Below are positions 1,371-26,710 of a stretch of DNA of 64,000 nt, piece after piece. Source of the stretch: an uncultured Gemmatimonadales bacterium. GTDB taxonomy: Bacteria; Gemmatimonadota; Gemmatimonadetes; Gemmatimonadales; GWC2-71-9. The translations under genes were made by a program, and so were the position numbers. Positions within the stretch are counted from its first letter, which is position 1. Every line of letters starts with the position of its first letter. The notes under the pieces are model-generated. The model did no database searches. It had not been told where the DNA came from and was given only the letters and a program-made list of their open reading frames with translations. Location: the NCBI GenBank assembly GCA_963739455.1, contig CAVUAK010000001.1:2432001-2496000 (forward strand). The letters run 5' to 3'.

Positions 1371-1382
1371 TGTGTTGTCCTC

Positions 1383-1838
1383 CTATTTCCTGTCGCGCAG
1401 CGGAGGTCCGGAACGGGCCAGCGGGGCTCGAAGGCAATCGCCAAAGTCGTTGCAGTGCGGACCGGGGTTGCAGGCGACGATGATGCTGACTTTCGCGTCC
1501 TCGCCGGAGGCTACCTGCACCGCGAGGGGATTCTTGCCAGCCACCTGGCATGCCTGGAGTTCGTCCAGGCCAGAGACCAACACGTCGTATTCGCCGGGTG
1601 GGAGGTCGGACAGGCTCAGCTGAGCAAACCGGTCGATGTGCTGGGGCGGCCTGGCACCGACGGTCACGTCGTAGCCATCGGGATCGACGCCCAGACCGAA
1701 CGAGGTGACCGCGACCTGCATGGAGCCGGTAGTGTTGCCAGGGTCCGGGGTCGGGTCCGCCGCCGACGTGCAGCTCGAGAGGACAAGCGCGAGTACCATC
1801 ATTGTGGCGGCCAGAGTGGCACATCGGTTGTGGCGCAT
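1383..1838 (-). CDS. Lipoprotein with a single domain of the same family
   Basis: Lipobox LSSC, then VTSFGLGVDPDGYDVTV..PPGEY..ACQVAGKNP..VAC. Confidence 0.75.
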   Translation of the reverse strand: MRHNRCATLAATMMVLALVLSSCTSAADPTPDPGNTTGSMQVAVTSFGLGVDPDGYDVTVGARPPQHIDRFAQLSLSDLPPGEYDVLVSGLDELQACQVAGKNPLAVQVASGEDAKVSIIVACNPGPHCNDFGDCLRAPLARSGPPLRDRK

Positions 1839-2073
1839 CGGTTATCCCTGAAACGGGTGGATCGACCTTCTGACGGGTCCTTATCCCAGAACGCGCAATG
1901 GGGGGTGGGAAGGGGACAGGGAACAGGGAACGGCTATGGGTCGATTGGCCTATCCTCCATAGAGCGTGCAGGGGGATGCGGGTGGAACGTCTGTTTGCTT
2001 GTTCGCCGGCCGGCGAGCAGCTTTGCTTCAGCTCGACAACGCGCAGCCCAGCGCCAAACCGGGCCACCACTCC

Positions 2074-2655
2074 ATGGACGCATCAGTGAGCGTAACCGAC
2101 CTGCTGCAGCGGGCCGGCGCGGGCGATCCTGCCGCGCCAGACCTGGTGTATCCGCTCGTCTACGATCACCTGCGGCTCATGGCACGACGGCAACTGCGGC
2201 GGGAAGCGAGCGGCCACAGCCTGAGCACGACAGCGCTGGTCCACGAGGCGTACCTCAAGCTGGTGGACCAGCGCCGGTCGCAGTTCAAGGATCGAGCGCA
2301 TTTCTTCGCGATCGCGGCGGTGGCGATGCGGCGGATCCTTGTGGACCATGCACGGCGGCACGGCGCGGTGAAGCGTGGGGCGGGTGCGAAGCGGGTGCCG
2401 CTGGAGACAGTGGAGGGTTTGGCAGCCGACGAGCGGGCGGAACTGCTGGTGGCGCTCGATGCGGCGCTGGTGCGGCTCGCCGCGCACGACCCGCGGCAGG
2501 CGAAGGTGGTGGAGTGCCGCTTCTTCGGGGGCCTCACGGAGGAGGAGACGGCGGAGGCGCTGGGGATGAGTTCCCGCACGGTGAAGCGCGACTGGGCGAA
2601 GGCGCGGAGCTGGCTCTACCAGTCGCTGTATCCCGATGTGGTGGGCCAGGGCTGA
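2074..2655 (+). CDS. ECF-type sigma factor of the kinase-associated class (TIGR02999-like)
   Basis: Motifs VTDLL, LVYDHLR, HSLSTTALVHEAYLKL, RAHFFAIAAVAMRRILVDHAR, VVECRFFGGL, RTVKRDW..AR.WL. ATG 2074 chosen as start. Confidence 0.9.
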   Translation: MDASVSVTDLLQRAGAGDPAAPDLVYPLVYDHLRLMARRQLRREASGHSLSTTALVHEAYLKLVDQRRSQFKDRAHFFAIAAVAMRRILVDHARRHGAVKRGAGAKRVPLETVEGLAADERAELLVALDAALVRLAAHDPRQAKVVECRFFGGLTEEETAEALGMSSRTVKRDWAKARSWLYQSLYPDVVGQG

Positions 2656-5162: not shown

Positions 5163-7533
5163 GGGCGACGCGCAGGCCTCGGCGGCGCAGCGCGTGGCGC
5201 CCTGTCCTGGCGGCGGCAGCAGTGAGTTGCTGCCTGACTCCATCGCTGGCGGCCCAGAGTGCGGTGGTGCGCGGTCGGGTGACGCAGGCCGAGAGTGACA
5301 GCGCCGTGGCGGGGGCTGAGGTCATGGTCAATGCGCGCAGCGTCCGGACGGAGGCTGATTCCGCCGGACGCTTCGTGTTACGCGACGTGCCGCCCGGCGC
5401 GCAAACGATCACGGTGCGCCGGCTGGGGTTCGCGCCGGCAACAGTTCAGTTGACGGTGGCCGCAGGCGATACCGCGGACATCACGGTGCCGCTCACACCG
5501 GGCGTGACGATGCTGGACATCATCACTGCGACGGCCACAGCCGATCCCCGGAGCCTCGCCGACGTGCCGGCAGCGATCTCAGTCGCGGATACGCAGGCGA
5601 TCAGGCAGGGCCGGGCAGTGGGGCTGAACGAGACGTTGCGGATGATGCCGGGCGTGCAGACGGCATCGCGGTTCGGGACGGACGACGTCAACATCGGGAT
5701 CCGTGGCTCGGCGAGCCGGGCACGGCAGGCGATCCGGGGCGTGGCGCTGCTGCTGGATGGCGTTCCGCTTTCGGAACCGGATGGCGTGGCGCGTACAGAC
5801 CTGGTCGAGCTGTTGTCGGCGCAGCGAATCGAGGTGGTACGGGGCCCGGTGTCGGCGCTGTATTTCGGATCGTCGGGCGGCGTGGTCAACGTCATTTCCA
5901 GCACCGGCCTCACCAATCCTGGAGTCGCGGCACTCTGGGAGTACGGGGCCTACGGATTCCAGAAGTACTTCGGTTCGGCCGGCAGCGGGTTCAACGGCGG
6001 ACGCGGTGGCATCCTCGCGTCGGGGTCGTACACGCACTTCGACGGATACCGCGATCACAGCAATGGCGGTATCGGGCGCGGACAGCTGCGGGCCGACTAC
6101 CAGGTGGCGAGCCGGACACAGGTGTCAGTGGACGCCGAGCTGTCGAGCATGAGCACGCGCGTTGCCGGGGCAGCTGACGGAGGCGGAGTTCAATGCTGAT
6201 CCCAACGCCGCGCAGCAGGTTGCGCTGAGGTACGACTTTGGACGAGATGAGGACAGGTTCCGGGTAGGGACACGGGTGCAGCAGGGGCTCAACCGGTCGG
6301 GTTCGACGATCGGCGTCGGCGTACTTCTACTATGGCGGCCGCACCTTCGAGTTTCGGTATCGGCGGGGGCATCCTCAACCTGAACTTTCACCGGCCGCAG
6401 CTGGGCGCCCAGGTGAATGCGGCGCGCGTCGGCGGTGCGCCGTTGAGCCTGGTGGCGGGTGTGGCAGTATGACAAGGTATTCGGACCGGACCAGCGTTGG
6501 CTGAGTGACACAGGCCACAAGGGAGACCTGTACGACAACGGCAGCGACGCGGCGCAGAACCTTGGTGTGTTCGGGCAGGCAGAATGGCAGTTCGGGCACA
6601 GCGTGACGCTTACCGCCGGCCTGCGATACGACGAAGTGGACTTTGCATTCCGCAGCTCGTTTCGCCGGGTTTATTCCGAGGCAGGACCGCACGTACAGCC
6701 AATGGTCGCCGAGGACGACGCTCTCCTGGCGCACGGGGTCACAGAACATGCTCTATGCCTCGGTGTCGCGCGGCTTCGAGGTGCCGGCGTTCGGAGAGAT
6801 CTCGCCCAGTCCCGGCGATACGCTGGTGCAGCTCGAGCCCAAGTCGCTGTGGAACTATGAGGTGGGCGCTCGTGGCCTGGTGGACAAGCGGTTCCTGTTC
6901 GACGCGTCGGTGTTCTTCTCCGATATCGACAACGAGTTCGTTCCGGTGGACAACAACGGCGTCGCCGGCAGTGGAGAACGCCGGCAGCTCGCGCAACTTC
7001 GGCATCGAGTTGTCGCTGCTGACGAACGTGACCCAATGGCTGGACGTGCTGGCTACCTATACGTACTCGGACTTCCGGCTGGTCGAGTACACGCCGCCGT
7101 GCGCGACTCGACGGGGGCCCTCCAGCCGGTAGACATGGCGGGCAACCTGCTGCCGGCGGTGCCGCAGAACCGGCTGACGTTCGGCGTCGATGTCCGGCCG
7201 GTGCGCGGGCTGTCGGTTGGGGTCCGGGTGGAGTGGCAGAGCCAGATGTTCGTGGATTCGGAGAATTCCGAGTCCGGCACCGTGTACTACCTGGGACGGG
7301 ACGGGCTGACTGCCGTTCCCTTCAGTGCGGTGCCGGCGCGGACGCTGGTCGAATTGAATGCGCACTATCAGGCAGGGGTGATCAACATGTTCGGCACCAT
7401 CGAGAACCTGTTCGGCATCACGTATGTGGGCAACGTGGTGGCGAACGCGGTCAATGGCGCGTTTTACGAGGCGGGACCGGGGAGATGGGTGACGCTGGGA
7501 GTGCGGGTCGCGGTGTGGCCGAAGGGGTTGTAA
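5120..7533 (+). CDS. TonB-dependent receptor with N-terminal carboxypeptidase-regulatory-like domain; split by several indels
   Basis: Signal peptide ending LAAQ; VRGRVT..VAGAEV..GRFVLRDVPPG; plug motifs IRG, LLDGVP, RIEVVRGPVSALY; barrel fragments in other frames (LTAGLRYD, YASVSRGFEVP, NYEVG, IENLF, GPGRWVTLGVR). Confidence 0.85.
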
Positions 7534-9282: not shown

Positions 9283-9311
9283 CAATTGTTTGTGATCGTC
9301 ACATTCAATTG
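9283..9311. promoter_or_regulatory. 29-bp imperfect palindrome CAATTG-TT-TGTGA-TCG-TCACA-TT-CAATTG; candidate operator upstream of the giant adhesin
   Basis: Dyad symmetry within an AT-rich patch about 110 bp upstream of ATG 9423. Confidence 0.5.
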
Positions 9312-9422
9312 CCAATACGGGCATGCTATTTGACAAGTATACGTGTTCAAGACAGCAGCGCGATCGGGACTTACGACCGATTCCCGCGTTGCTGATTTTC
9401 GGTTCGGAGATCCGAACCGGGT

Positions 9423-12400
9423 GTGGGAAACCGGACACGGAGACGGTATCGAGTGGCGGCACGACACGACAGGCGCTTGGCGACAGCGCGACACACCGGA
9501 CTGCTGTTCGGTGTGGTCGCGTCGTTGTTGCTGTCGGTTGCCGCACCGGTGCACGCGCAGATCGTGCGCACGTTCACCTCGCGCTACAACACCAACGCCA
9601 GCGGCACCGTGCAGATCGTCGGGAACGCGCTGCTCACCTGCACCGCGTCGGCGACGTGCACCGCGGCGCAGGCCGGAACCGGCGCTTCGCTGGACAACAA
9701 CGGCTTCACGATGGTGGACATCGACATCGACGGCGATGCCACCACCCAGAATTCGAGCTCGGCGACCTTCACGGTGCCGCCGAGCGGTACGGTGTTGTTT
9801 GCCGGGCTCTACTGGGGCGCACGATCGAACGCGGCGGCGCGCAACACTGTTCGCTTCCGCACGCCGGCGACCGCCGGGTACACCACGGTTACCGCGACGC
9901 AGCTCGACGCCAACAACCCGGCCTATCAGGGATTCGCCAACGTCACCGCGCTGGTCCAGGCGGGCGGCACAGGCACCTACACTGTCGCCAATGTGCAGCG
10001 CACGCTGGGGACCGACCAGTATGCCGGCTGGGCCCTCGTCATCGTGGTCAGCGATCCCGCCGAATTGCGGCGCAACCTGGTGGTGTTCGACGGCTACGGC
10101 ACGGTGCAGAGCTCCGCCACGACGGTGACGATCCCGGTGAGCGGCTTCCTGACGCCGAGCAATGGTGCGGTGAATGCGCAGCTGGGGGTGGTGGCGTACG
10201 AGGGTGACCTGGGGCAGACGGGCGACGTGCTGCGCCTGAACGCCACCAACCTCAGCGACGCGGCCAACCCGGCGAACAACGTCTTCAACTCGACGATTTC
10301 GCGGCTCGGTTCGCCGATCGGCGCCAAGCTGCCGAACTACGCCAACCAGCTGGGCTTTGACGCCGATGTCATCAGTGCCGCCGGCATCCTGCCCAACGGC
10401 AGCACCACCGCGACCATTACGCTCACCACCGGCGGCGAGACCTATTACCCCGGCGTGGTGACGCTCGCCACCCAGCTCTATGTGCCGGACCTGACCACGA
10501 CCTTCACCAAGACGGTGACGGACGTGAACGGCGGTACGGTGCAGCGCGGTGACACGCTCGAGTATACGATCGCGTTCACCAATACCGGCCAGGATACGGC
10601 GCTCGCCGTGATGGTGACCGACACGGTGCCGACCGGCTCGACCTACGTGCCGGGCTCGATCAGCTACCTCACTTCAGTTCCTGGTGGCCCACCGACCGGC
10701 ACCAAGACGGACCTGCCGGGCGACGACGCCGCCAACTATGAGGCCGGCCCCAACCGGGTGCTGGCGCGACTCGGCATTGGTGCAACCGCGGCGGCGGGCG
10801 GCCGACTTGGGCCAGGGCAGGGGTCGTCGTTCCGCTTCCGTGTCGTGGTCAACCCGGCGCTGGCGGCGGGGATGCTGGTGAGCAACCAGGCAGGGATCGA
10901 CTACACCGGGCAGACGCTGGGCGACGTGTTCAACGGGAAGAGCGACGGGGACGCCGGCACGCCGGGCATCCAGCCGACGGTCGTGACGGTGGCCGCCGGT
11001 GCCGATGTACAGGTGGGGAAGAGCGGTCCGGTGACGGGCAGCATCACGGTACCGCTGACGTACACCCTGACACTGACCAACAACGGACCCGACGCGTCAC
11101 TCAACGTGGTGGCGCGGGATACGCTGCCGGCGAGCTTCACCTTCGTCAGCGCCACTGGCGGCGGCACGGCGGTGGGCAATGTGGTGACGTGGCCGGCGAT
11201 CGCATCGCTGGCGAGCGGGGCGTCGCAGAGCTTCACGGTAACGGCGACGCCGACCACGGCGGGGTCGTTCACCAACATCGCGGCATCGAGTGCCGCGACG
11301 TTCGACCCGACGGTGACCAACAACAACGGCTCGCTGGCGGCGTCGCGGGTGACGACGGTGGTCGCGGCATTCGCCGACGTGGCGATCACCAAGACCGGTG
11401 CGGCGACGGTGAATGCGGGCGGGTCGCTGGTGTACACAATCACGGCGACCAACGCCGGTCCGGCGGTGGCCACAGCGGTGGTGGTGACGCGACACCGTGC
11501 CGGCCGGTGCGACGTTCGTGAGTGCCACCGGCGGCGGTACGCTGAGTGGCAACGTGGTGACGTGGCCGGCGATCGCATCGCTGGCGAATGGCGCATCACA
11601 GGGCTTCACCCTCACGGTGACAGCGCCGGCCACCGGCACCCTGCTCAACATCGCGGCATCGACGGCGACGTCGCCCGATGGCACACCAGCCAACAACAAC
11701 GGATCTGCGCCGGCGAGCCGAGTCACCACGACGGTGGTGGAACAGGCCGACATCGCGGTGACCAAGACGGGGCCGGCCACGATCAACGCCGGCCAGCCGA
11801 TCACCTACACACTCACGGCATCGAACGCGGGACCGAGTGCGGCGGTGGGTGTGATCGTGACCGATACGCTGCCGGCCGGTGTCACCTTCGTCAGCGCCAC
11901 CGGCGGCGGAACGCTGACGGCAACGTGGTGACGTGGCCGGCGATCGCGAGCCTGGCGAGCGGCGCGAGCCAGGGCGTGAGCGTCACGGTGACGGCGCCTG
12001 CCACCGGTGTGCTGCTCGACATCGCTGCGGGAACATCGACGACTGCCGACCCCAACGCCGCCAACAACAACGGATCGCTGCCGGCGGCGCGCGTGACGAC
12101 GACGGTGGTGGCCCAGGCGGATGTGGCGATTGCCAAGGCGGGTCCGGCGACGGCTCTCGCCTCGAGCGCCCAGGTATACGTGGTCACGGCAAGCAACAGT
12201 GGCCCGTCGGCGGCGAGCAACGTGGTGGTGACGGATACCCTGCCGGCCGCGGTGACCTTCGTGAGCGCCAGCGGTGGCGGGACCGTCGCTGGGCGGGTGG
12301 TGACGTGGCCGGCGATTGCGTCGCTGGCTTCGGGCGCGAACCAGGTGTTCACGGTGACGGTGACGATGCCGTCGACGCCGCAGGTGGTGCTGAACATCGC

Positions 12401-15400
12401 CGCGTCCTCGTCGGCAACGGCCGACCCGAACGCCGCCAACAACAACGGCTCGGCGGCCGGGAGCCGAGTGAGCACGAGCGTCACGGCGTCAGCGGATGTG
12501 CGGACGACGAAGACGGGCCCTGCAACGATCAACGCCGGGCAGAACGTCACCTATACGGTATCGGTGAACAACGTCGGCCCATCGGCGGCTGCGACCGTGG
12601 TGCTGACCGACACGCTGCCGGCGGGTGCCACGTTCGTGAGTGCAACGGGTGGCGGAACGCGGGTGGGCAATGTGGTGACCTGGCCAACGATCGCGAGCCT
12701 GGTGAGTGGTGCCACGCAGAGCTTCACCGTGGTGGTGACGGCGCCCGCGACGGGCACGCTGCTCAACCTCGCGGCCTCGACGTCTGCCACGCCTGATCCG
12801 GACCTGACCAACAACAACGGGTCTGATCCGGCGAGCCGAGTGTCGACGCTGGTGGTGGACCAGGCCAACCTGGCGGTTACGAAGACGGGTCCGGCCACGG
12901 TACTGGCGGGCGCCACCTACTCGTACACGGTGACAGCGTCGAACGCGGGCCCAAGCGCGGCGGCAAACGTGGTGGTGACGGATACGCTGCCGGCAACGGT
13001 GACGTTTGTCAGTGCCACGCTCGGCGGGACGGTGAGCGGCAACGTCGTGACCTGGCCGGCGATCCCGAGCCTGGCCAACGGCGCCAACCAGGTGTACACG
13101 GTGACGGTGACGGCACCGGGCGTCGGGCCGTTGCTCAACATCGCGGCGGGCACGAGTACCACGGCTGATCCGGTGCCGGGCAACAACAATGGCTCGGCGG
13201 CGGGCGCCCGGGTGACCACGGCAGTGACGCTGCAGGCCGATGTGCAGATGACGAAGACGGGACCGGCGAGTGTCCTCGCGGGCCAGACGATCACCTATAC
13301 GGTGACGGTGACGAACGCCGGCCCGAGTGCAGCGGCGACGGTGATCGTGCGGGACTCGCTGCCGGCGGCGGGAACGTTCGTGAGCGCGGTACCGGCGGGT
13401 GCGGTGGCGGGACGGCTCATCACCTTCCCCACGATCGCGTCGCTGGCGCCGGGGGCGAGCCAGGTCTACACGGTGACCTGGACGGCACCGGTCAACCCGG
13501 CGGTGCCGCTCACGCTCAAGAACATGGCGTACAGCACCAGCACCACCGCCGACCCGGTGCCGGCCAACAACAGCAATACCAACCCGGCCGCGATCGTGAA
13601 CACCGCGGTGGTTGCGTCGGCGGATGTCGCGACGACGAAGACCGGTCCGGCGACGGTGAACGCCCTGACCAACTACACGTACACGATCACGACCCGGAAC
13701 AACGGGCCGAGCACGGCGACGGGTGTGGTGGTGGTCGACACGCTGCCGGCCGGGGTGACGTTCGTGAGCGCCACGCTCGGCGGCGTCGCGGTGGGCAATA
13801 TCGTGACGTGGCCGGCGGTGTCGATCAACACGGCGACGACCACGACGCGCACTGTGACGGTGACGTCGCCGGCCTTCGGGACGCTGCTCAACATCGCGGC
13901 CAGCAGTGCTACGACGGCTGATCCGAACCCGGGCGACAACAACGGGTCGGCGGCGGGGGCCCGGGTGACGACGGTGGTGAATACCGCTGACGTGGCCACG
14001 ACCAAGACCGGTCCCGCGACGGTGAACGGGGCCACCAACTTCACCTATACGATCACGGTGCGGAACAACGGCGCCGGGGTCGCGACGGGCATCGTGGTGG
14101 TCGATACGCTGCCGGCGACGGTGACGTTCGTGAGCGCCACCAATGGTGGTGTGCTGGGCGCGGGCAACGTGGTGACCTGGCCGGCGATCGCGACACTGGC
14201 AAATGCAGCGACCGCGGCCCGCAGTGTGACGGTGACGTCGCCGGCCTCGGGGACGCTGCTCAACATCGTCGCCAGCACCTCGACGTCGGCGGACCCGGTG
14301 CCGGCCAACAATGACGGCTCGGCGGCGGGTGCCCGGGTGACGACGGTGGTGAACACCGCCGACGTGGTGACGACCAAGACCGGCCCGGCGACCGCCAATG
14401 GTGGGGCGAGCATCACCTATACGCTGACGGTGCGGAACGCCGGTGCGGGTACCGCGACGGGCATCGTGCTGGTGGATACGCTGCCGGCAGCGGTGACGTT
14501 CGTGAGCGCCTCGGCGGGTGGCACGCTGGGCGCGGGCAATGTGGTGACGTGGCCGGTGATCCCGACGCTGGCCAATGCGGCGACCACCACGCGCACGGTG
14601 ACGGTGACGGTACCGGCGAGCGGTACGCTGCTCAACATCGCGGCGAGCACGGCGACCAGCGTCGACCCGACGCCGGCCAACAACGACGGGTCGCTGCCGG
14701 CGGCGCGGGTCACCACGGTGATCCAGGTGGCCGACGTGGTGACCACCAAGACGGGCCCGCCACCGCGAGCGGCGGGGCGAACATCACCTATACCGTGACG
14801 GTGCGGAACGCCGGCCCGAACGCGGCGCCGAACATCGTCGTCGTGGACACGCTGCCGGCGACGGCGACCTTCGTGAGCGCCTCCAACGGCGGCACCCTCG
14901 GCGCGGGCAACGTGGTGACGTGGCCGGTGCTCGCGACGCTGGCGAACGGTGCGACGACGACGCGCACGGTGATCGTGACGACGCCGGCCACCGGGTCCCT
15001 GCTCAACATTGCCGCGAGCACCTCGGGCACCACCGATCCTGACCTGACCAACAACAACGGGTCGCTGCCGGCGGCGCGCGTCACCACGGTGATCAGCGCG
15101 GCCGACCTGGTCACCACCAAGACCGGTCCGGCGACGGTGAGCCCGGGCGGCAGCATCACCTATACGATCACCACCCAGAACCTGGGCCCGAACGCGGCGC
15201 CCGACGGTGGTGATCCGGGACACGCTGCCGGCCACGGTGACGTTCGTGAGCGCGTCCAACGCCGGTGTGCTGGGCGCGGGCAACGTAGTGACCTGGCCGG
15301 CGGTCGCGAGCCTGGCCAACGGCGCCTCCACGGTGCGCACGGTGACGGTGACCGCCCCCGCTATCGGCACGCTGCTCAACATCTCGGCGAGCTCGTCGGC

Positions 15401-18400
15401 CACGACGGACCCCAACCCGAACAACAACAACGGGTCGCTGCCGGCGGCGCGGGTGACGACGACGGTCAACCCGACCGACATCGTGACGACCAAGACCGGT
15501 CCGGCGTCGGCGACCATCGGCAGCAACATCAGCTACACGATCTCGGTGCGGAACGCCGGCCCGGTGAACGCGGTGGGCGTGGTGGTGACGGATACGCTGC
15601 CGGCGGGCCTGACGTTCGTGAGTGCCACCGGCGGCGGCACGGCGGCCGGCAACGTGGTGACCTGGCCCACGATCGCGAACATGGCCAATGGTGTGGTCCA
15701 GAACTTCACCGTGACGGTGGCGGTGCCGTTGGCGGGGTCGTTCACCAACATCGTCGCGAGCACCGCGGCGAGCGGTGACCTGAACCCGAACAACAACAAC
15801 GGATCGCTGCCGGCGTCGCGAGTCACCACGCTGGTGATCGACCAGGCCGATGTGGTGACGACCAAGACCGGTCCCGGCGACGGTGAACGCCGGCGGGGCG
15901 GTGACGTACAGCATCTCGGTGCGGAACAACGGCCCGACGGCGGCGCTGAACGTGGTGGCGAGCGACACACTGCCGGCAACGGTGACGTTCGTGAGCGCCA
16001 CAGGCGGCGGCACGGTGAGCGGCAATGTGGTGACGTGGCCGGCGATCGCGTCGCTGCCCAACGGCACGCTCCAGACGTACAGCGTGACCGTGACGGCGCC
16101 GGCGACGGGAACGCTGCTCGACATCGCGGCGAGCACGTCCACGACGCCCGACCCGACGCCGGCCAACAACAACGGATCGCTGCCGGCGGCGCGCGTCACC
16201 ACCGACAGTGGTGGAGCAGGCCGACGTGGCGACCACCAAGACTGGCCCCGCCTCGGTGAATGCGGGCGCCAACTTCTCCTATTCGCTGAGCGTGAGCAAC
16301 GCCGGCCCGAGCGCGGCGCGCGCGGTCGTGCGTGACGGATACGCTGCCGGCGGGTGTCACGTTCGTGAGCGCCACCGGCGGCGGCACGGTGAGCGGCAAC
16401 GTGGTGACGTGGCCGGCGATCGCGAGTCTCGCGAGCGGCGCCAGCCAGGGCTTCGGCGTGACGGTGACGGCGCCCGCCACGGGTACGCTGCTCAACATCG
16501 CGGCAAGCACCTCGAGCACCGCCGACCCGGTGCCGACCAACAACAACGGGTCGCTCCCGGCAGCGCGGGTCACCACCACGGTGGTGGAGCAGGCTGACGT
16601 GGTGACGACCAAGACCGGTCCCGCGACGGTGAACGCGGGCCAGAACTTCAACTACGCCGTCAACGTCGCCAATGCAGGGCCGAGCGCGGCGGCGGCGGTG
16701 GTGGTGACGGACACGCTCCCGGCTGGCGTGACCTTCGTGAGTGCGACTGCCGGCGGCACGCTGAGCGGCAACGTCGTGACCTGGCCGGCGATCGCGAGCC
16801 TGGCGGGCGGTGCGAGCCAGGGCTACTCGGTGACGGTGACGGCGCCGGCAACCGGCACGCTGCTCAATATCGCGGCGAGCAGGTCGACCACAGCCGATCC
16901 TGATCCATCCAACAACGATGGCTCGCTGCCTGCCTCGCGCGTCACCACGACGGTGGTGGCGCAGGCGGACGTGGCCACGACCAAGACCGGCCCGGCGACG
17001 GTGAACGCCGGGCCAGAGCTTCAGCTACACCCTGGCGGTGGCCAACAACGGGCCGAGCGCCGCGGCGACGGTGGTGGTGACAGATACGCTGCCGGCCGGG
17101 GTGACGTTCGTCAGCGCCACCGCTGGCGGCACGCTGAGCGGCAATGTGGTGACCTGGCCGGTGATCGCGAGCCTCGCGAGTGGCGCCAGCCAGGGCTACG
17201 GCGTGACGGTGACGGCGCCCGCCACGGGCACGCTTGCTCAACATCGCGGCGAGCACGTCGGGCACGGCGGATCCGGTGCCGGCCAACAACAACGGCTCGC
17301 AGCCTGGCTCGCGCGTCACCACGACGGTGGTGGAGCAGGCTGATGTGGTGACGACGAAGACCGGTCCCGCGACGGTGAACGCGTCGCAGAACTTCTCCTA
17401 TGCCGTAGCGGTGGCCAACAGCGGGCCGAGCGCTGCCGCAGCGTCGTGGTGACGGACACGCTGCCGGCGGGCGTCACCTTCGTGAGTGCAACCGGCGGCG
17501 GCACGTTGAGCGGCAACGTCGTGACCTGGCCGACGATCGCATCGCTGGCGAGTGGCGCGAGCCAGGGCTACAGCGTGACGGTGACGGCACCGGCCACCGG
17601 GGTGCTGACCAACATCGTCGCCAGCACCTCCACCACCGGCGATCCCGATCCGTCGAACAACAACGGTTCGGCGCCGGGTGCGCGGGTCACCACCACCGTC
17701 ATCGAGCAGGCAGACGTCGCCACCACCAAGACCGGTCCGGCGACGGTGAACGCGGGCCAGAACTTCACCTACGCGCTGACGGTGTCGAACACCGGCCCGT
17801 CAGCGGCCGCGACCGTGGTGGTGACCGACACCCTCCCGGCGGGCGTCACCTTCGTCTCAGCGACGAACGGCGGCACGCTGAGCGGCAACGTCATCACGTG
17901 GCCCGCCATCGCGAGCCTGGCGAGCGGGGCGAACCAGGCCTACAGCGTGACGGTGACGGCGCCGGCCACAGGCGTCCTCACCAACATCCTGGCGAGCACG
18001 TCGCCGACCGCCGACCCGAACCCGGGCAACAACAACGGGTCGGCGCCGGCGAGCCGAGTGACCACGACGATCATCGAGGTGGCGGATATCGTCACCACGC
18101 AAGACCGGTCCGGCCACGGCGATTGCCGCGACCAACTTCAGCTACGCGATCGGCGTCCAGAACGCCGGTCCGTCGATTGCTGCCAACGTGCAGGTGACCG
18201 ACACGCTGCCGGCGGGTGTCACCTTCGTCTCGGCGACGGGCGGCGGCACGCTGAGCGGGAGTGTCATCACCTGGCCCGCCATCGCGACCATGGCAAACGG
18301 TGCCACGCCAGGCCTACACCGTGACGGTGACGGCTCCGGCCACCGGATCGCTGCTCAACATCGTCGCGAGCACGTCGTCCACGCTCGACTCCGACCCGGC

Positions 18401-21400
18401 CAACAACAACGGCTCGCTGCCGGCGGCACGGGTCACCACGATCGTGCAGGAACGGGCCGATGTCGTCACCACCAAGACCGGTCCTGCCACGGTGCAGGCC
18501 GCGGCCCAGTTCAGCTATACCATTACGACGCGGAACGTGGGCCCGAGCGCCGCAGCGGCAGTGGTGGTGAGCGATACGCTACCGGCGACGGTGACCTTCG
18601 TGAGCGCCACCGGCGGCGGTGTGCGCGTGGGCAACGTGGTGACCTGGCCGGTGATCCCGAGCCTGGCGAGCGGCGCGGCGCAGAACTACGACGTGACGGT
18701 GGCGGCGCCGGCGACCGGATCCTTCACCAACATCGTCGCGAGCACGTCGGCGACGCCCGACCCGGTGCCGGCCAACAACGACGGCAGCGCCCCGGCGAGC
18801 CGAGTCACGACCACCGTGAGTGAGCTCGCGGATGTGGCGACGAGCAAGTCCGGTCCGGCGCGAGTCAACGCGAGCGACCTGGTCAACTACACGATCACCG
18901 TCACCAACATCGGCCCGAGCGCGGCAACGGCCGTGCTGGTGAGCGATCCGATTCCGGCCGGCGCCACCTTCGTGAGCGCCTCCAATGGTGGCGCGCTCAA
19001 TGGGGCGGTGGTGCAGTGGCCGGCGATCGGCTCGCTCGCTGCGGGCCAGACGCAGACGTACGCGCTCCAGGTACGGGCGCCGCTCACCGGCACGCTCACC
19101 AACGTGGTGTCCAGCACCGCGACCACCATCGATCCGGTGCCGGCCAACAACAACGGCTCGCCTGCCGGCGGCCCAGGTGCAGACCACCATCGAACCGGTC
19201 GATCTCGCGGTGACGAAGACGTCGCTGCCCGAGTTCCGCATCGGTACCGTCGGCACGTATACCCTCACCGTGCGCAACGTCGGCAATGCGCCGAGCGTCG
19301 GCACCATCACGGTGGTGGATACGCTGCCGGCGTCGCTGCGCTTCTCGTCGGCGGACGGCCCGGGATGGAGCTGCGGTGCCAGCGGCGCGATTGTCACCTG
19401 TACCGCAGCGAGCCCGCTCGTGGCCGGTGCATCGAGTGCCATCCAGCTCAGCGTGGACGTGCTGCCGGCGGCGGTGCCGTCGGTGACCAACACCGTGGCG
19501 GTGGCGACCCCGGGCGATACGGCGACCGGCGGCAACAACGCCTCGAGCATCGCGACGGTGGTGGTGGCGCAGAGCCCGCTGGTCGCCGAGAAGACGGCGG
19601 GGTCGGCGACCGCTGAGATCGGTGATGTCGTCAACTACACCCTGACGGTGCGGAACCAGTCGGGCCAGCCGGTGCCGGCGGTGGTCTTCAATGACCACCT
19701 GCCGCTCGGCTTCGCGTACCAGGCAGGTACGGCCCGGGTGAACGGTGCGGCGGTGCCCGATCCAACAGGCGCTCCTGGACCGACGCTCGGCTTCCCGATC
19801 GGGACGCTGGCGGGGAACGGTACGGCGACGGTGACGTACCGGGTGTTCCTGAACCCGGGTGCATCGGCGGGTGACGGCCTCAACCGCGCGCAGGCAGTGA
19901 GCACGATCAGCGGTGTCGCATCGAACACCGCGACGGCCAAGGTCGAGGTGACTGGCGGCGTGTTCACCGATCGCGGCATCATCGCCGGCAAGATCTTCAT
20001 CGATTGCGACTGCGATCCCGATCGCGTCCAGGGGCCGCGTGACATCGGCATCCCGGGCGTGCGCATCATGCTCGAGGACGGTACCTCGACCGTCACCGAC
20101 GTCGAGGGCAAGTACAACTTCTACGGCCTCTCGCCGCGGATGCACGTGCTGAAGGTGGATGTGACGACGCTCCCGCCGGGCTCGAGGCTGGCGGCGGTCT
20201 CGTCGCGCAATGCCGGCGACGGCTGGACCCGCTTCGTCGACCTGCGGAACGGCGAGTTCGTCCGCGGTGACTTCGTCGAGGTGAGCAACGACGCCGCGGT
20301 GCTCGCGGCGGTCATTGCGCGACGCCGCCAGGGCGAGATCTATGCGGCGGCGATTCCGGATACCATCCCGATGGTGATGGTGGGCGACTCGCTGACCGCG
20401 AGTGGCGACACGGTGCCCGGCACCGCGTACCAGCCCCTTATCGGCGGCCTTGCCAGCCCGGTGACGGCTGAGGGTGCGGCGTCTCCTGTCTTGCGCCTGC
20501 CGCAGTCGGAGCAGCCGGAGCGGCTCGCGCGTCCCACCGACTCGCGGCTCGAGATGATGGTACCGGCACAGGGCATCCCGGCGGACGGCGTCACCTCGGT
20601 ACCAGTGCGAGTCAAGATCGCCGCCGCAAACGGCGCGGTCATCACCACGCCGGCCACGGTGACGCTCGAGGCGTCGCTGGGCCGCTGGCTGGTGGAGGAT
20701 CTCGACGCCACCCAGCCGGGCGTGCAGACGCAACTCAAGGATGGACAGGGCGAGTTCATGCTCGCGGCGTCGCCGCGCGAAGGTGTGGGCGAGGTGCGCG
20801 TGACGAGCGGCGCCCTGGTGCAGACCGGGCGCGTGGCCTTCCTCCCGGTGGCGCGGCCGCTCACGGCGGTCGGCATCCTCGAGGGACGCATCGACCTGCG
20901 CTCGCTCTCCAAGGGTGCCCTGGTTCCATCGACACCGGACGACGGCTTCGAGCAGGAACTGAAGGACATCTCCATCTCCGGCGACAGCGGGCTCAACCGT
21001 GCCGGTGCGCGCGCCGCCCTCTTCCTGCAGGGCAAGGTGAAGGGGAGCTATCTCCTGACCCTGGCGTTCGACACCGAGCAGGACCCCGGCCGGCAGTTCA
21101 TGCGCGACATCCAGCCGGACGAGTTCTACCCGGTGTACGGTGACGCGTCGGTGAAGGACTTCGGCGCGCAGTCGTACGACCGGTTGTACGTCCGGATCGA
21201 CAAGGACCGGAACTACTTCCTCTACGGCGACTACGTGACGCCGGCGCCTTCGCAGGCGCGCCAGCTGGGTGGCTACCTGCGCAGCCTGACCGGTGCCGTT
21301 CAGCACTTCGAGAACAAGACGGTGCAGGCCAACGCCTTTGCCGCGCACACGCGGATCACCCAGGTGGTGGACGAGCTGCGCGGGATGGGCATCTCCGGCC

Positions 21401-23325
21401 CGTACCAGTTGTCGCAGCCCAACGCGCGCATGAACAGCGAGCGGATCGACATCCTGACGCGCGACCGCAACCAGCCGGAACGCGTGCTCAAGATCGTGCC
21501 GCTGACCCGCTTCTCCGACTACACGCTGGAGCCGTTCACCGGTCGCATCCTGCTGCGGCAGCCGCTGCCGAGTCTCGACGCCGAGTTGAACCCGGTGTCG
21601 ATGCGGGTCACCTACGAAGTGGAGCCGGCCGACGCCCCACAGTCGTGGGTGTACGGTGCGGACGCGCAGGTCCGGGTGAGCTCGTTCGCCGAGGTGGGCG
21701 GCGCGGTGGTGCAGGACGACAACCCGTACAACGGGCGGCAGATCTACACCCTGAACGGCAGCGCGCGGCTCGGCAAGAACACGCAATTGGTCGCGGAAGG
21801 CGCGTTGACCAATACCGACTCACTGGGTGACGGCAGCGCGGGACGCTTCGAGCTGCGGCACCAGGCCGGGAAGTTCAGCGGCAACGTCTTCGGCGCCGTG
21901 AGCGCCACGACCTTCTCCAACCCGTCGGCCACCTTCGGGGCGGGGCAGATGCAGTTCGGCGCCCGCGCCGCGATGCAGATCGACCAGAAGAGCGGCGTCC
22001 GGGCCGAGGCGCTGCTGAGCGAAGACCGGGTGAACGGCGGTCGCCGGAAGGGCGCCCTGATCGCCTACGAGCGCGCGATCTCGCGGCTGTTCCGCGCCGA
22101 GGTCGGCTATCGCTGGGCGGAGGAAACGGTCGCGCCGGTGGATACCGCGACGGCGATCACGCCGGGTGCCACTCCGAACGAGACCAACGCCATCGGCGTG
22201 AAGCTGACTGCGCTCCTGCCGAGCAAGCGAGGCAGCGCGTCGATCGAGTTCGAGCAGGACGTGGTGAACACCGACCAGCGTCGCGCGGCGGTGGCAGCGG
22301 AGTACTGGGTATTCCCCCGGCTCCGTCTCTACGGCCGCTACGAGCTGCTGTCATCCTTCGCCGGCCCGTACGCGCTCAACGGCGCGCAGCGCCTGGCGCA
22401 GGCGGTGGTGGGCTTCGACCTCGCCTACTTCAAGGACGGGCAGTTCTTCAGCGAGTACCGCGCGCGCGACGCCTTCTCCGGTCGCGAGGCCGAGGCGACG
22501 ATCGGTCTCCGGAACCGGTGGCAGGTGGCTCCAGGTGTACGGGTGGACGCCTCATTCGAGCGGGTCAACCCGATCAAGGGCGGCGACGGCGCCGAGGCCA
22601 CGGCGGTGACGGCGGCGGTGGAGTACACCCGCAGCCCGCTGTGGAAGGGCACGCTGCGCGCTGAATACAGGAACGCCATCAGCGGCGACAACTTCCTGGC
22701 GACCCTCGGTTATGCGCGGAAGCTCACGCGCGACTGGACGCTGCTGGGTCGCGGCTTCTGGAGTGCATTGCCGGAGGACCAGCTCCGCACCCGCGGGCAG
22801 CTGGGCCTGGCCTGGCGCGAGACGGACAACAACAAGTGGAACGGACTCGGCCGCGTGGAGCATGGCGTCGATCGCCTCAAGAACGGCGTCAACGGCGAGC
22901 TCACGTCGCGCCAGCTCGATATCGCGATCGCACAGATCAATTACCAGCCGATCCTGCGGCTCACCATCTCGGCGGAGTACGCTGCCAAGTGGATGCGCCA
23001 GGATGACGCCATCCTGTCGAAGACCGCCACGCAGCTCGGCCAGCTACGCGGCATCTACGATCTCGACCACAACTGGGACGTCGGCCTGCAGGGCAGCATG
23101 ATGTGGGGCGGGTCGTTCCGGAGCATCCGCTACGGTGTTGGCGGCGAGCTGGGACGGCGGCTCATCAACAACCTGCGCGTCGCCGCGGGATACAACCTCT
23201 TCGGCTTCCAGGACAAGGATCTCCGCGAGACGGACTACACCATGCAGGGGCCCTACCTGCGGCTCGACTTCAAGTTCGACGAGTCGATCCTGCCGGGGCT
23301 CAAGAAGACGGAGCTGGCCCCATGA
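9423..23325 (+). CDS. Giant surface protein (~4,600 aa): signal peptide, N-terminal tip domain, ~25 DUF11/TIGR01451-type Ig repeats, SdrD-B-like and Ig domains, large C-terminal outer-membrane beta-barrel; about 13 single-base indels
   Basis: Signal peptide ending VHAQ. Repeat consensus ADV.TTKTGP..V..G....Y.I.V.N.GP..A..VVVTDTLP..VTFVSA..GG...GNVVTWP...LA.G.....VTVTAP..G.LLNIAAS.S.T.DP...NNNGS...ARVTT continues through each frame change. C-terminal region has GIPGVRIMLEDG, FLQGKVKG.YLLTL, FYPVYGDAS, LYVRI, YLRLDFKFDE. Confidence 0.8.
11000..19200 (+). repeat. About 22 tandem coding repeats of ~372 bp (124 aa)
   Basis: AD..TKTGP-type unit starts near 11000, 11374, 11745, 12117, 12492, 12864, 13236, 13620, 13986, 14358, 14730, 15101, 15475, 15846, 16220, 16593, 16965, 17339, 17710, 18082, 18456, 18828. 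Confidence 0.9.
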
Positions 23326-24419
23326 GGCGGACGATCATGTTGCTCGCGGGGCTCCTGCTCACGGCGGGATCGCTGTCCGCGCAGAGCCAGGACCAGTTGC
23401 TCCCGGCCAGGAAGCGGATCACCGACGAGGCGCTGGCGCGCGACTGGGCGCTCATCAACAAGTGGCTGGTGCGGGCCGACTCGCTCCCGCGCGACCCCGG
23501 CGACCTGTACGCGAGGGCGCGGGCCATCGCACTGCTCGAGTTCGTGGGGACGGAATACGATCGGGCCAACCGATCGCCGGTGCTCGACACGTCGTTCGTG
23601 CATGCCGTCGCCATTGTGGAGCGGATCGAGGCGGGGCAGACCTGGTACGAGAAGGTCAGTGAGCCGGTGGGCGCGGGCCTGGTGGCTCCCGGCGTCTGGC
23701 AGCGGATCGACTCGCTGCAGGGCGCGGACACCAATCATTGCGCCCAGCCGCAGATCGCGAAGGCGCAGGTGAAGCTGCTGCTCGCGGTGGAAGAGCATCG
23801 CACCGGCGGGCCGGCATGCTCGGAGCCGATCGTGAAGGAAGTTGAGGCGCTGATCGACGACATCAAGCGGCTCATCGCGGCGTGCGAGCCCAAGGTGGCC
23901 GACACACTGCAGGCCCCGCCCACGCCTGAGCCTGATCCGTGGGTCGAGCCGCCGGCACCCGAGGTGGTGAAGATCCCGAGCGCGGTCCACTTTGCGTTCG
24001 ATCACGCGAGGCTGAGCCCCGCCACCAAGGCGGTGCTCGACCAGGTGGCGGCACAGCTGGTGGCGCTGCCTGACGCGATGGTCAAGCTGGATGCGTTCAC
24101 CGATCCGCAGGGCCAGACGAAGTACAACCAGCAGCTGTCGGCGCGGCGCGGCGAGGCGGTGCGGAAGTACCTGGTGGAGAAGGGGGTGAACCCGGCGCGG
24201 ATCAGCGTCGTGCCGCTGGGTGCCACGGCGCCGATCAAGGACCCGGAGCTGCCACGGCTCGAGCGCTACGCCCTCGACCGTCGGGTGGACATCCAGATCC
24301 TGCCGATGAACGACTACGTCATCGAGCGCTACGAGCAGTACGGCGATGTCCAGGCGACGGTGCAGCATCGCCGCGCGCGAGGGCGCGCGAAGCCCTCGGG
24401 CCGCAACTACGGCAACTGA
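23322..24419 (+). CDS. Secreted OmpA-family peptidoglycan-binding protein with helical N-terminal domain
   Basis: ATGA-coupled to the giant gene; signal peptide ending LSAQ; C-terminal VHFAFDHARLS..FTDPQG..YNQQLSARRGEAV..YL..ALDRRVDI. Confidence 0.88.
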   Translation: MRRTIMLLAGLLLTAGSLSAQSQDQLLPARKRITDEALARDWALINKWLVRADSLPRDPGDLYARARAIALLEFVGTEYDRANRSPVLDTSFVHAVAIVERIEAGQTWYEKVSEPVGAGLVAPGVWQRIDSLQGADTNHCAQPQIAKAQVKLLLAVEEHRTGGPACSEPIVKEVEALIDDIKRLIAACEPKVADTLQAPPTPEPDPWVEPPAPEVVKIPSAVHFAFDHARLSPATKAVLDQVAAQLVALPDAMVKLDAFTDPQGQTKYNQQLSARRGEAVRKYLVEKGVNPARISVVPLGATAPIKDPELPRLERYALDRRVDIQILPMNDYVIERYEQYGDVQATVQHRRARGRAKPSGRNYGN

Positions 24420-26710
24420 GATCGTTCGGCGATCGCCTTGAACCGGGCATCGCCGCGCAGGTTGTCGAGCTTCGGTTCCACCTGCAGGTAGAGCATTGCG
24501 GGGTCTCGCTCGGTGAGGCCGCGTTCCAGCTGCGCGAAGGCCGCTGGACGGTCCCCGAGGGCTCCGTACACGAACGCGAGGTTGGTCGGCGCCACGAACT
24601 CGCGCGTCGCCTGGCCCTCCAGCTCGGTGAGGAGCGCTCGCGCTGCGGGCGCCTGCCCGGTGCGCGCCAGTGCGTAGGCGAGCGCCACGCGTGGCAGCCA
24701 GTGTCCCCCCGACTGGGTAACCGCGCGCTCGAGCTCCGCCTTCGCTTCCGCAGGACGACCCTGTTCCAGTAGCGCCAAGCCAAGCCACGTCCGCGCCGGA
24801 AAGAACTCGGGCGACAGGCTGAGCACGCTCTGGGCTGACGCCTCCGCGCCGGAGTAATCGCGCCCGTAATAGGCGACAGCCGCCGCCGCTGCGCCTACCG
24901 TGGGCGCCAGCGGGTCGAGCGCCATGGCGATGCTGATTTCCCGCCTGGCGTCGTCCGCGCGGCGGAGCGTCACGAGGTTGAGTGCCCGCCAGTGATGCGC
25001 CGTCGTGTACTGCGAATCGGCGGCGACCGCCCGCGCGAAACCAGTCTCGGCATCCTGCACATTCCAGTCATACAGTGCCTGCAGGTAGGCGCTCACCGTC
25101 AGCGCCTCGACTACGGTTGAATCGAGTGCGAGGGCTTGCTGCGCCGCGGCGCGCGCCTCGGCGTACGCCTGACGGGGCGGCACGCGACCATAGGTGGGCA
25201 GCAGCATCCAGGTCGATGCGACGCCCGCGGCAGCAGCGGCATACGACGGGTCCAGTGCGAGCGCCGAATCGAACGAAACCATCGCGGAGCGCAGGCCCTC
25301 CTCCGTGCGGCGGTTCCACGCGTAGCGACCGCGCAGGTACTGGTTGTATGCCTGGAGGCTGGTGGTGGCGGCGGCGGGAGAACGCGCCACGTTCGCGACC
25401 GGCGGGCGATGCAGCGCACCCACGAGTGCATCGGCGACTTCATCCTGCAGCTTCATGATCCCGCCCAGTGGCCGGTCGTACGCACCGGTCCAGATCTCGA
25501 ATCCGTCACGCGTGCCCACGAGGCGGGTGGTGACCCGGATCGAGTCTCCCGTCCGCCGGACGCTTCCCTCGATCACCGCATCCACCTTCAGCGCGTTGCC
25601 GATCTCCTCGACGCTGGTGGCCTGCTCACGGATCATGTATGACGACGTGCGCGCCGCCACCCGAAGGCCCTCGAGCGTGCCGAGCCGGGTGATGAGGTCC
25701 TCGGTGAGGCCGTCGCTCAGGTAACTGTCCTCGGCGCTGCTGCCGAGATTGGTGAAGGGAAGCACGGCGACAGCGGAGATCACTCGTGCCGGCGCCGGCG
25801 TGGAGCGGGAGCGCATCCACGCGATGATGAGTGCCAGCGCGATCGCACCAACCAGCACGCCGATCCATCGGCGGCGTGCCGGGCGCACCGATGCCTCGGG
25901 AACGACAGGCGACAGAGGCGGCGCTTCCGGCGGAACCGGGACGGCGCTCTCTGCCTCGAGCGGTGGAGCCTGTCGTCGATCGGCCGCACCGCTCCACGCG
26001 CCGCTCCTGGCGCGGACCCGGTCAATGATGTCGCGCACCTTGCGGTCGGGCGGCGAGTTGAGCTCCTGCTTCACCAGCGTCTCATACTTCTGCGCGAACT
26101 GCATCGCCGATGTGCGACGTCCCGCCGCGAGCAGCGCCTCGAGATAGCCGGCGGCACTGCGCGGGTCGAGCGGATCGAGCTCGGATCGCCGGCGCCAGGC
26201 GTCGGCGGCGGTCGCAGCGTCGCCTGCGGTGGTCGCGGCAGTTGCCAGTGCATCGAGCGCCTTCACGGCGTACTGCCGGAAGCGCTCCCGTTCGCCATCG
26301 AGCCAGTGATCGAAGTCCGGTGCATCAGTGAGGTGAAAGCCGTCGAGGAAGGATCCCTGGTACAGCCCGGCGACGCGGCTGTGATCCCCGGCCTGGACGG
26401 CGCCGAGGAGGTCACCCACATCGCTGGTGAGGGAGGTCGGATCGAGCCGGAGCTGGCTGTCGCCCACCAGGAGTGGCTGCCCGCCGGAACTGCGCCGGAG
26501 GCTGTAGACGAGTTGGGCCAGCGCGTGGCGGGCCCGCTCGGTGTCGCTCTCGGGCCAGAGCGTCGCCAGGACCCGGTCCCGGCTTACGCCCTGGGTGCCA
26601 CCCGACGCCACCATGGCGAGCAGTGTGAGGCGGCGGGGCTGGGACAGCCCGGTGGCTGGCGCGCCATTATCGAGCGCGAGCCAAAGCCCGCCAAATGTGT
26701 GCAAACGCAC
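24407..26710 (-). CDS. SARP/BTAD-type transcriptional activator with TM helix, TolB-like and TPR regions
   Basis: MRLHTFGGL..VSRDRVLATLWPE..ARHALAQ..Y.G.FLDGF..FDHWLDGER; TM RRRWIGVLVGAIALALIIAW; AVAVLPFTNL..YLSDGLTEDLI..LRVAARTSS; TPRs. Confidence 0.85.
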   Translation of the reverse strand: MRLHTFGGLWLALDNGAPATGLSQPRRLTLLAMVASGGTQGVSRDRVLATLWPESDTERARHALAQLVYSLRRSSGGQPLLVGDSQLRLDPTSLTSDVGDLLGAVQAGDHSRVAGLYQGSFLDGFHLTDAPDFDHWLDGERERFRQYAVKALDALATAATTAGDAATAADAWRRRSELDPLDPRSAAGYLEALLAAGRRTSAMQFAQKYETLVKQELNSPPDRKVRDIIDRVRARSGAWSGAADRRQAPPLEAESAVPVPPEAPPLSPVVPEASVRPARRRWIGVLVGAIALALIIAWMRSRSTPAPARVISAVAVLPFTNLGSSAEDSYLSDGLTEDLITRLGTLEGLRVAARTSSYMIREQATSVEEIGNALKVDAVIEGSVRRTGDSIRVTTRLVGTRDGFEIWTGAYDRPLGGIMKLQDEVADALVGALHRPPVANVARSPAAATTSLQAYNQYLRGRYAWNRRTEEGLRSAMVSFDSALALDPSYAAAAAGVASTWMLLPTYGRVPPRQAYAEARAAAQQALALDSTVVEALTVSAYLQALYDWNVQDAETGFARAVAADSQYTTAHHWRALNLVTLRRADDARREISIAMALDPLAPTVGAAAAAVAYYGRDYSGAEASAQSVLSLSPEFFPARTWLGLALLEQGRPAEAKAELERAVTQSGGHWLPRVALAYALARTGQAPAARALLTELEGQATREFVAPTNLAFVYGALGDRPAAFAQLERGLTERDPAMLYLQVEPKLDNLRGDARFKAIAERSQLP

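Follow-up and report, generated by a model that had tools for sequence, protein, structure and literature searches.

A DUF11 stalk joined to a very large predicted outer-membrane barrel in an uncultured Gemmatimonadales bacterium: a probable single-chain surface fibre with multi-gene relatives

What is made from a gene that joins a long row of DUF11 repeats to a very large predicted outer-membrane barrel, and by which route would its product leave the cell? This question is raised by a locus in a 64,000-nucleotide stretch of an uncultured Gemmatimonadales bacterium (assembly GCA_963739455.1, contig CAVUAK010000001.1, positions 2,432,001 to 2,496,000), here called the window, where a gene encoding a signal peptide, a tip domain, a stalk of immunoglobulin (Ig)-like repeats and a C-terminal barrel is followed by a gene for an OmpA-domain protein (Table 1). 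A previous sequence-only reading had described the pair as a self-contained adhesin export module. Our analysis suggests that the gene probably specifies a single-chain surface fibre of ~4,600 residues exported through its own barrel, a pore route that we infer, and that the fused gene is likely, on sequence comparison, to be a derivative of a multi-gene system of tip, shaft and barrel subunits.

The C-terminal domain of 824 residues was modelled by AlphaFold2 as a barrel of ~38 strands over 810 residues with an inserted domain (predicted local distance difference test (pLDDT) 78.4, predicted template-modelling score 0.71; 44 of the 99 chosen sequences were used in the alignment), in agreement with the very large barrel proposed earlier. 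The region is strand-rich as described, and 14 more residues follow the YLRLDFKFDE that had been taken as its end. The count of 38 is a reading rather than a measurement, chosen because only 38 gives a consistent loop parity; the 39-40 strands obtained from raw DSSP were dropped. Read in this way, all long loops lie on one face (outside) and all but one of the 2-residue turns on the other (inside), and loop parity together with amphipathy would place both barrel ends in the periplasm, which fits those homologues in which an OmpA domain is fused behind the barrel. The backbone diameter is ~68-70 Å by formula. The sequence-only reading had advised looking for a plug, and the inserted β-sandwich is a candidate; it folds alone with a pLDDT of 87.6 and has a mean column identity of 66% over 57 rows.

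The barrel belongs, as had been supposed, to an uncharacterised family, and by Pfam and NCBIfam it is neither TonB receptor nor autotransporter. The domain has no Pfam or NCBIfam match, PF03797 is absent from the window protein and from 13 homologues, the closest Atlas clusters are unnamed, and a sequence search of the Protein Data Bank (PDB) returned no relative of the barrel and none of a single repeat; entry 9IFR matches a homologue profile at E 3e-8. Foldseek, the comparison suggested beforehand, gave generic barrels only, with a best TM-score of 0.28 and a root-mean-square deviation (rmsd) above 17 Å. A wide structural search placed FimD and PapC first (Z 13.6; rmsd 9.7 and 6.1 over 347 and 309 aligned residues), a score that ties with porins and the translocase of the outer mitochondrial membrane, TOM (13.0-13.4). 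For the insert, Foldseek found nothing at E≤0.001; its fold matches comprise phage tail adaptors (Z 7.2) and SprA (Z 5.5, rmsd 2.7 over 70 residues), within the range of a common fold, and no usher plug was among the 50 structural rows listed.

The stalk ahead of the barrel was followed in a frame-traced chain, the breaks of which are taken up below. Its 25 DUF11 repeats agree with the ~25 Ig-like repeats counted previously, and all 28 Pfam DUF11 matches of the source genome (G000, an assembly of 3.6 Mb in 4 contigs, 84% complete) fall within the fused gene. A Lys/Asp/Asn isopeptide triad is readable in 21 of these 25 (20 of the 24 repeats detected by script, plus repeat 24); Asp replaces Asn in two repeats, and a triad residue falls on a frame break in three, one of these two included. 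The Lys-Asp spacing (Lys 33 before Asp) is that of the CLIPPER/DUF11 structure, in which Lys715 is bonded to Asn806 and Asp748 is catalytic (10.1101/2025.04.25.650565). To judge from these residues, the stalk domains are likely to be self-cross-linked by Lys-Asn isopeptide bonds. A single N-terminal signal peptide was borne out, and by eye no internal one was seen in the traced chain. Its start at 9423 gave way to a GTG at 9453, the likelier position since relatives begin MAARHD and the GTG context is kept in loci L018 and L019. The tip is present, with ~310 rather than ~350 residues; it has no Pfam match and is weakly DUF3344-like (Atlas lead 0.91, DUF3344 on 16% of the members, recognition below the mark). 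The SdrD_B-like and Ig domains described after the repeats were also recovered, the former below the Pfam cut-off; it is part of a conserved core before the barrel and occurs in nearly all complete homologues. The helical segment and linker that follow it are a candidate for the part spanning the lumen, and strand parity in the model predicts that the Ig-like domain lies on the periplasmic side.

Of the clusters made at 50% identity, 3,027 are related to the barrel (1,261 at 1e-30), and homologues occur in Gemmatimonadota, which include the nearest named relatives, Pseudomonadota, Verrucomicrobiota, Thermodesulfobacteriota, Nitrospirota, cyanobacteria and Deinococcus. Within the phylum Gemmatimonadota the family is patchy, since the insert profile matches 39 of 299 near-complete genomes. 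At least 120 homologues have 2,423-5,000 residues, nearly all with DUF11 or SdrD domains; in fused forms the tips vary or are absent and the repeat number is about 10 to 28. We surveyed the neighbourhoods of the best 80 of at least 537 confirmed GTDB stretches. DUF11 lies in or beside the barrel open reading frame (ORF) at 70 of these loci, the remaining 10 being cut at the 5' end, and at 35 of the 80 the barrel ORF itself holds at least three; the common core is DUF11-SdrD-Ig-barrel. The linkage of the family to separate DUF11 genes plus OmpA, which the sequence-only reading had put forward, was upheld for DUF11 and not for OmpA as a constant partner, which was found at 36 of the 68 loci having at least 1.5 kb downstream.

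In split loci the subunits are separate and their ends are complementary. In shaft genes (~900 residues) and barrel genes the signal peptide is followed by a donor hairpin GTxIxNxAxA..SNxVxxxV, which is not found at the start of tip genes. At the opposite end, the last domain breaks off at model position 85-89 of 131 in 26 of the 51 separate DUF11 ORFs, at most 5 residues from the stop; six further shafts end in the same motif by eye, and the remainder are frame fragments or small proteins of ~190 residues. In all 29 aligned cases, the acceptor domains formed in this way have retained both Lys and Asp; the last two strands, with the Asn, are missing. By profile, the N-terminal donor hairpin is present in 85 of 119 barrel proteins with at most two DUF11 domains, in 2 of 7 with three to five and in none of 88 with six or more; an independent regular expression found it in 63 of the 119 versus 4 of the 88, at a shuffle rate of 3.3%. 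All 22 split loci have an acceptor gene and none of the 31 fused loci does, 27 loci being unclassified; a search of the G000 genome for separately encoded donors or acceptors found none. For the acceptor and barrel donor of L091 (Geobacteraceae), complex prediction gave a score of 0.84 versus 0.00 for the best control, with at least 97% of contacts agreeing between runs and a partner pLDDT of at least 86; of 157 solved pairs, 116 attained the mark for this score, as against 2 of 215 mismatched ones. In the predicted complex, Lys11 and Asp63 of the acceptor both contact donor residue 13, two from the Asn. The split relatives are thus predicted to form a head-to-tail, isopeptide-locked pilus rooted on the barrel, in which each N-terminal hairpin would complete the truncated last DUF11 domain of the preceding subunit.

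The tip of the window protein shares 45% and 49% identity with the N-terminal parts of acceptor-only tip genes in L091 and L094 (E 3e-76 and 1e-85), hence the fused order of tip, stalk and barrel equals the order predicted by donor/acceptor polarity. By this sequence comparison, intermolecular joints are replaced by peptide bonds in the fused chain. The homology to separately encoded tip proteins, together with the mutual exclusion of fused and split forms, supports the Rosetta-stone interpretation given to the locus at the outset. On a FastTree phylogeny of 242 barrel-domain rows, with 92 unclassified rows left out, fused and split states require 3 changes, versus 78 for shuffled labels. The fused groups are a clade of 126 rows, of which the 30 with names are all Gemmatimonadota, a group of 5 rows with Lysobacter proteins and one Verrucomicrobiota-adjacent protein. 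A quick IQ-TREE analysis of a 45-row subset (LG+G4) also gave 3 changes, 2 of them forced by starred branches, and approximately unbiased tests rejected a single fused clade (p 2e-15) as well as a single split clade (p 5e-5). The root was placed on three paralogues with long branches; at their loci L023 and L026 the DUF11-type genes are separate. On these trees fusion looks derived, at least twice; because of the long outgroup branch, the direction of change is less sure than the repeated switching.

The partner gene encodes a signal peptide without lipobox, an N-terminal domain of no known family, a Pro-rich linker and an OmpA C-terminal peptidoglycan-binding domain. The ATGA coupling to the barrel gene reported before was confirmed, and an A/GTGA overlap is retained in 6 of the 6 closest relatives (L049-L054); in some homologues the two domains of the partner are fused after the barrel. 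Where there is room downstream, 19 of 30 fused loci have an OmpA domain, as do 10 of 20 split ones, which rules out an obligatory partner: OmpA is frequent but optional. In Acinetobacter sp. Tol 5, the giant adhesin AtaA has an operon-coupled periplasmic OmpA-domain tether, TpgA. AtaA differs from the protein described here in being a trimeric autotransporter whose barrel is small, and the N-terminal domain of the partner here is of no known family, its match to NF047726 (TpgA) being far below the cut-off.

The system departs from the barrel features that define type Va autotransporters, chaperone-usher systems, TonB receptors and the type IX secretion system (T9SS). Type Va autotransporters have a 12-stranded β-domain of ~300 residues, and their passenger crosses while the barrel is held by BamA. 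They share with this protein the signal peptide, N-terminal passenger, linker and C-terminal barrel in one chain, a layout seen here in intact relatives and in the frame trace, as well as variable tips and repeat numbers; on the other hand, the barrel here has ~820 residues and ~38 strands with an insert and no PF03797, the passenger is of isopeptide-type Ig domains, a periplasmic tail or OmpA follows the barrel, and split multi-gene counterparts exist. In type Ve proteins (intimin/invasin) a 12-stranded barrel is N-terminal and the Ig passenger C-terminal, whereas here the barrel is C-terminal with ~38 strands. The chaperone-usher systems Fim and Pap, with an usher barrel of 24 strands, resemble the arrangement predicted for the split relatives in having an acceptor-only tip, a donor-plus-acceptor shaft and a donor-only terminator, and have a large barrel with an inserted β-sandwich, as does the model here. 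In contrast to them, the predicted donor here consists of a hairpin of two strands that bears the isopeptide Asn, the barrel would itself serve as terminator, and the fused form has whole domains with no polymerisation needed. No PF00577 usher was found in the window protein or the G000 genome, and no PapD-type chaperone PF00345 in that genome, which is 84% complete. TonB-dependent receptors have an N-terminal Plug and a 22-stranded barrel; the window protein has no Plug (PF07715) match, whereas a true receptor fragment in the window matches at 1e-16. SprA, the T9SS translocon, is likewise a very large single-chain barrel, with 36 strands, and a segment of it aligns weakly with the insert, but the window protein is one third its length and over the barrel as a whole the two align poorly (Z 9.2, rmsd 16.6). 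The remark that no T9SS C-terminal signal is visible was right for the protein, which in Pfam and NCBIfam searches has neither a TIGR04189 match nor such a signal; it was incomplete for the genome, where a SprA-like (TIGR04189) gene with broken frames lies at C1:557060-560929 (-), above the curated cut-off; the insert profile does not match it.

CLIPPER/DUF11 fibrillar adhesins (PDB 9IFR) have the same stalk domain and Lys/Asp/Asn spacing, and here too a signal peptide and tip precede a stalk of tandem DUF11 domains, with the triad in the sequence. Archaeal threads are reportedly polymers joined by a donor strand plus an intermolecular isopeptide bond. Such 'exchange and lock' logic, predicted here for the split relatives, is described for BsaA of Clostridium perfringens in the text available (PMC11580942); BsaA and the archaeal threads differ in having TasA-family folds, monoderm or archaeal cells and no outer-membrane barrel. 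The main text of the CLIPPER preprint contains neither 'barrel' nor 'autotransporter' and treats the bond as intramolecular (10.1101/2025.04.25.650565), and the accessible portions of PMC9210967 and PMC8877628 leave barrel and OmpA unmentioned. Matches to 'DUF11' in the visible text of PMC11821415 are to DUF1102. One sentence in the part of PMC9388160 that was available lists three uncharacterised 38-stranded barrels of Deinococcus radiodurans, with no function; they are alike in predicted strand number and compared by that number alone. A literature search, with most subscription papers outside it, found no description of a DUF11-barrel system.

The wider proposal, which we regard as evenly balanced, is that the family constitutes an undescribed diderm secretion or pilus class, in which the ~38-stranded barrel would be both export pore and terminal subunit, serving either a donor-hairpin covalent pilus (split form) or, after at least two independent fusions, a self-exporting chain that threads folded, cross-linked domains tip-first. 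In the fused form, on the reading that we consider probable, the chain would be exported by Sec, and the β-barrel assembly machinery (BAM) would insert the C-terminal barrel with both ends periplasmic. The stalk domains would fold and lock by Lys-Asn isopeptide bonds in the periplasm and then pass, still folded and tip-first, through the wide lumen, possibly gated by the inserted domain. The base would stay covalently tied to the barrel, leaving a fibre of fixed length, roughly 100 nm (an estimate at ~4.5 nm per domain for 25 domains), and the OmpA partner, where present, may pin the barrel to peptidoglycan. A surface location is proposed because of this stalk length and the variable tips.

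Several observations weigh against this reading. Strand number, insert position and topology were read from secondary structure and not from coordinates. The source sequences of the donor profile overlap the tested set, which makes that test partly circular, and the donors were picked by an Asn-containing motif, so that their invariant Asn is circular too. In fused loci the array takes up most of the upstream flank, and the absence of acceptor genes there carries less weight for it. In the L091 complex the Lys11-Asn11 pair is not among the 25 best pairs listed, although both residues lie within the interface, and since the complex consists of two halves of one domain, its high score may reflect likeness to an intact DUF11. 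Homologues P0094, P0164 and P0183 carry 7-9 DUF11 domains between barrel and OmpA; such arrays are periplasmic, and DUF11 alone is therefore no proof of surface exposure. OmpA is absent from 11 of 30 fused loci. In the window copy itself, the array has 13 frame breaks versus 3.2 expected, 4-fold denser than background (P 3e-5, from differing counting methods), and none of the 15 sequencing runs listed contained the stretch (best share 0.09), nor was any RNA run listed as containing it.

The strongest alternative, though in our view a fairly unlikely one, is that the barrel is a passive anchor and that export is assisted by BAM: the product would still be a surface fibre, but the stalk would cross at a hybrid barrel formed with BamA/TamA while insertion is under way, as type Va passengers do, and fold and cross-link outside. 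The order of passenger, linker and barrel is that of type Va, a helical linker follows the SdrD-like domain, and crossing during the hold by BamA is the known route of type Va passengers. Such an anchor leaves unexplained why fused forms have retained a barrel of ~38 strands and its conserved insert though 12 strands suffice for type Va, and the split relatives must pass separately made subunits that are joined to the barrel's own N-terminus.

Export through the barrel is also challenged by an improbable alternative, according to which the DUF11 chain would stay in the periplasm as a spacer or scaffold between outer membrane and wall, with the barrel as pore or anchor. The predicted periplasmic position of both barrel ends and the homologues with arrays between barrel and OmpA, necessarily periplasmic, agree with it, and SlpA, a 30-stranded barrel, serves as a connector of outer membrane and peptidoglycan according to the available text of PMC9388160. 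However, 25 domains, by the length estimate above, are longer than a normal periplasm is wide, the domain that binds the wall stands at the C-terminus or behind it and not on the N-terminal chain, and the tips and repeat numbers vary as in adhesins.

A somewhat smaller probability attaches to the window copy being a true pseudogene, or switched off by repeat slippage, in which case the family would be real and this allele without full-length protein. As assembled, the longest ORF pieces are 9423-14798 and 18985-23325, and motif tracing showed that the frame of the repeats switches many times. Where the sequence-only reading had joined the array to the barrel ORF across one extra C near 19161, a codon-model frame trace found 13 single-base breaks from 11490 to 19158 (10 insertions, 3 deletions). 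All 13 lie inside the array, in the excess given above, and the copy in G003 (L052) also carries one break, both of which speak for this alternative. On the other hand, the traced chain of 4,631 codons has no in-frame stop, and the tip, base, barrel and OmpA gene are unbroken. Ordinary genes of the assembly are broken as well: from 400 kb of the relative G006, 219 ORFs were taken, of which 178 have a G000 orthologue, and 62 of these (35%) are frameshifted in G000, with 95 shifts or 0.39 per kb, a lower bound. This rate is as would be expected of an unpolished long-read assembly, and the high share of frameshifted genes is a caveat on every 'split gene' or 'pseudogene' reported for this assembly. 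Repeats are also where consensus polishing fails. The barrel is present in 6 of 11 same-genus genomes at 69-93% identity, in unbroken single frames, stop to stop, in G006 (4,276 codons), G001 (3,294) and G010 (2,693), while the copies in G004 and G008 are cut by contig ends; homologue P0004 (4,234 residues) shares the tip and contains 22 stretches that match DUF11 in Pfam. From these sequence comparisons we consider it very probable that the 13 breaks are sequencing errors in the assembly. Finally, a large-solute transporter or receptor carrying the DUF11 fibre as a fused substrate-capturing appendage rather than as cargo is highly improbable, since the 'TonB-dependent receptor' labels given automatically to some distant homologues and the TonB receptors and LptD among the top Foldseek rows are set against the generic nature of those matches, the lack of any Plug or TonB-receptor Pfam match, an insert that is internal and not an N-terminal plug, and a near-invariant linkage to DUF11 genes.

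Table 1. Coordinates of the fused gene, its partner and associated features (window positions unless a locus is named).
Feature	Position	Strand	Remarks
Conserved promoter-like motif containing TTGAC	9323..9350	+	In the window and L017-L019, absent from L020
Sec signal peptide	9453..9557	+	Likely start GTG 9453; AxA cleavage before 9558 (mature chain from 9558)
Tip domain, ~310 residues, putative adhesive/binding	9558..10490	+	Homologous to N-terminus of separate tip genes in split loci
Stalk of 25 DUF11/CLIPPER Ig-like repeats	10494..19965	+	~124 residues each
SdrD_B / carboxypeptidase-regulatory-like domain	19966..20286	+	E 1e-4 and 8e-6 in Pfam, neither reaching the cut-off
Short predicted-helical segment and low-complexity linker	20287..20535	+	RADFA..R stretch conserved in consensus
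Ig-like domain directly before barrel strand 1	20536..20850	+	Local profile in most homologues; strand parity
Predicted ~38-stranded outer-membrane β-barrel, unnamed family	20851..23280	+	7 strands, insert, 31 strands; AlphaFold2
β-sandwich of ~90 residues inserted in barrel, conserved, candidate plug	21352..21642	+	Barrel-model residues 168-264
OmpA-partner gene	23322..24419	+	PF00691 E 1.9e-19; ATGA overlap with barrel stop at 23322-23325
Small single-DUF11-like genes of split loci	L073:4658-5380, L091:3089-3634, L094:3086-3664, L122:3030-3632

An imperfect palindrome upstream of the gene (9283-9311) was rejected as a conserved element, as it is not kept in four relatives (L017-L020). Genes for a Ser/Thr kinase with tetratricopeptide repeats (TPR) and for a BTAD-TPR regulator flank the locus (window 1260-5162 and 24407-26710), the downstream one also adjoining the G006 orthologue, and at window 5120-6199 lies the start of a TonB-dependent receptor (CarboxypepD_reg and Plug) that stops after 359 residues, probably another frameshift. 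Among the split loci, small secreted single-DUF11-like genes (~170-240 residues) lie upstream of the shaft and are candidates for an alternative tip, adaptor or chaperone. One split operon (L129:7098-20605) is on a plasmid of Acinetobacter haemolyticus, with its shaft gene in annotated pieces. Others are on Deinococcus ficus plasmids, where a distant barrel homologue adjoins DUF11 genes. A second, distant barrel subfamily (~25% identity) of the same bacterial family is found at L023, L024, L025, L026 and L027; these loci adjoin genes of ~410 residues starting with a donor-like hairpin, and G022 carries both subfamilies. DUF11 arrays stand on both sides of the barrel in P0094, P0164, P0183, P0072, P0081, P0082 and P0097, and P0072 ends in MAP3K_TRAF_bd/TPR-S domains. 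The fused member P0010 has a tip that we take to start with a GDSL-like motif; it has no Pfam match and suggests an enzymatic passenger.

If the proposal is true, the family would add a route of protein export and fibre assembly across the outer membrane, and its barrel would be among the largest single-chain barrels. Tip-first threading of folded, cross-linked domains through the protein's own pore would be unlike any known autotransporter. The family would bridge pilus designs, built as polymers, and autotransporter designs, built as single chains, and the split form would be a natural covalent coupling pair of the SpyTag kind. The fused form fixes the order of the parts in one or two genes with no subunits or chaperone needed, and being so economical, it would be the simplest construct for asking whether the barrel exports folded, covalently locked domains.

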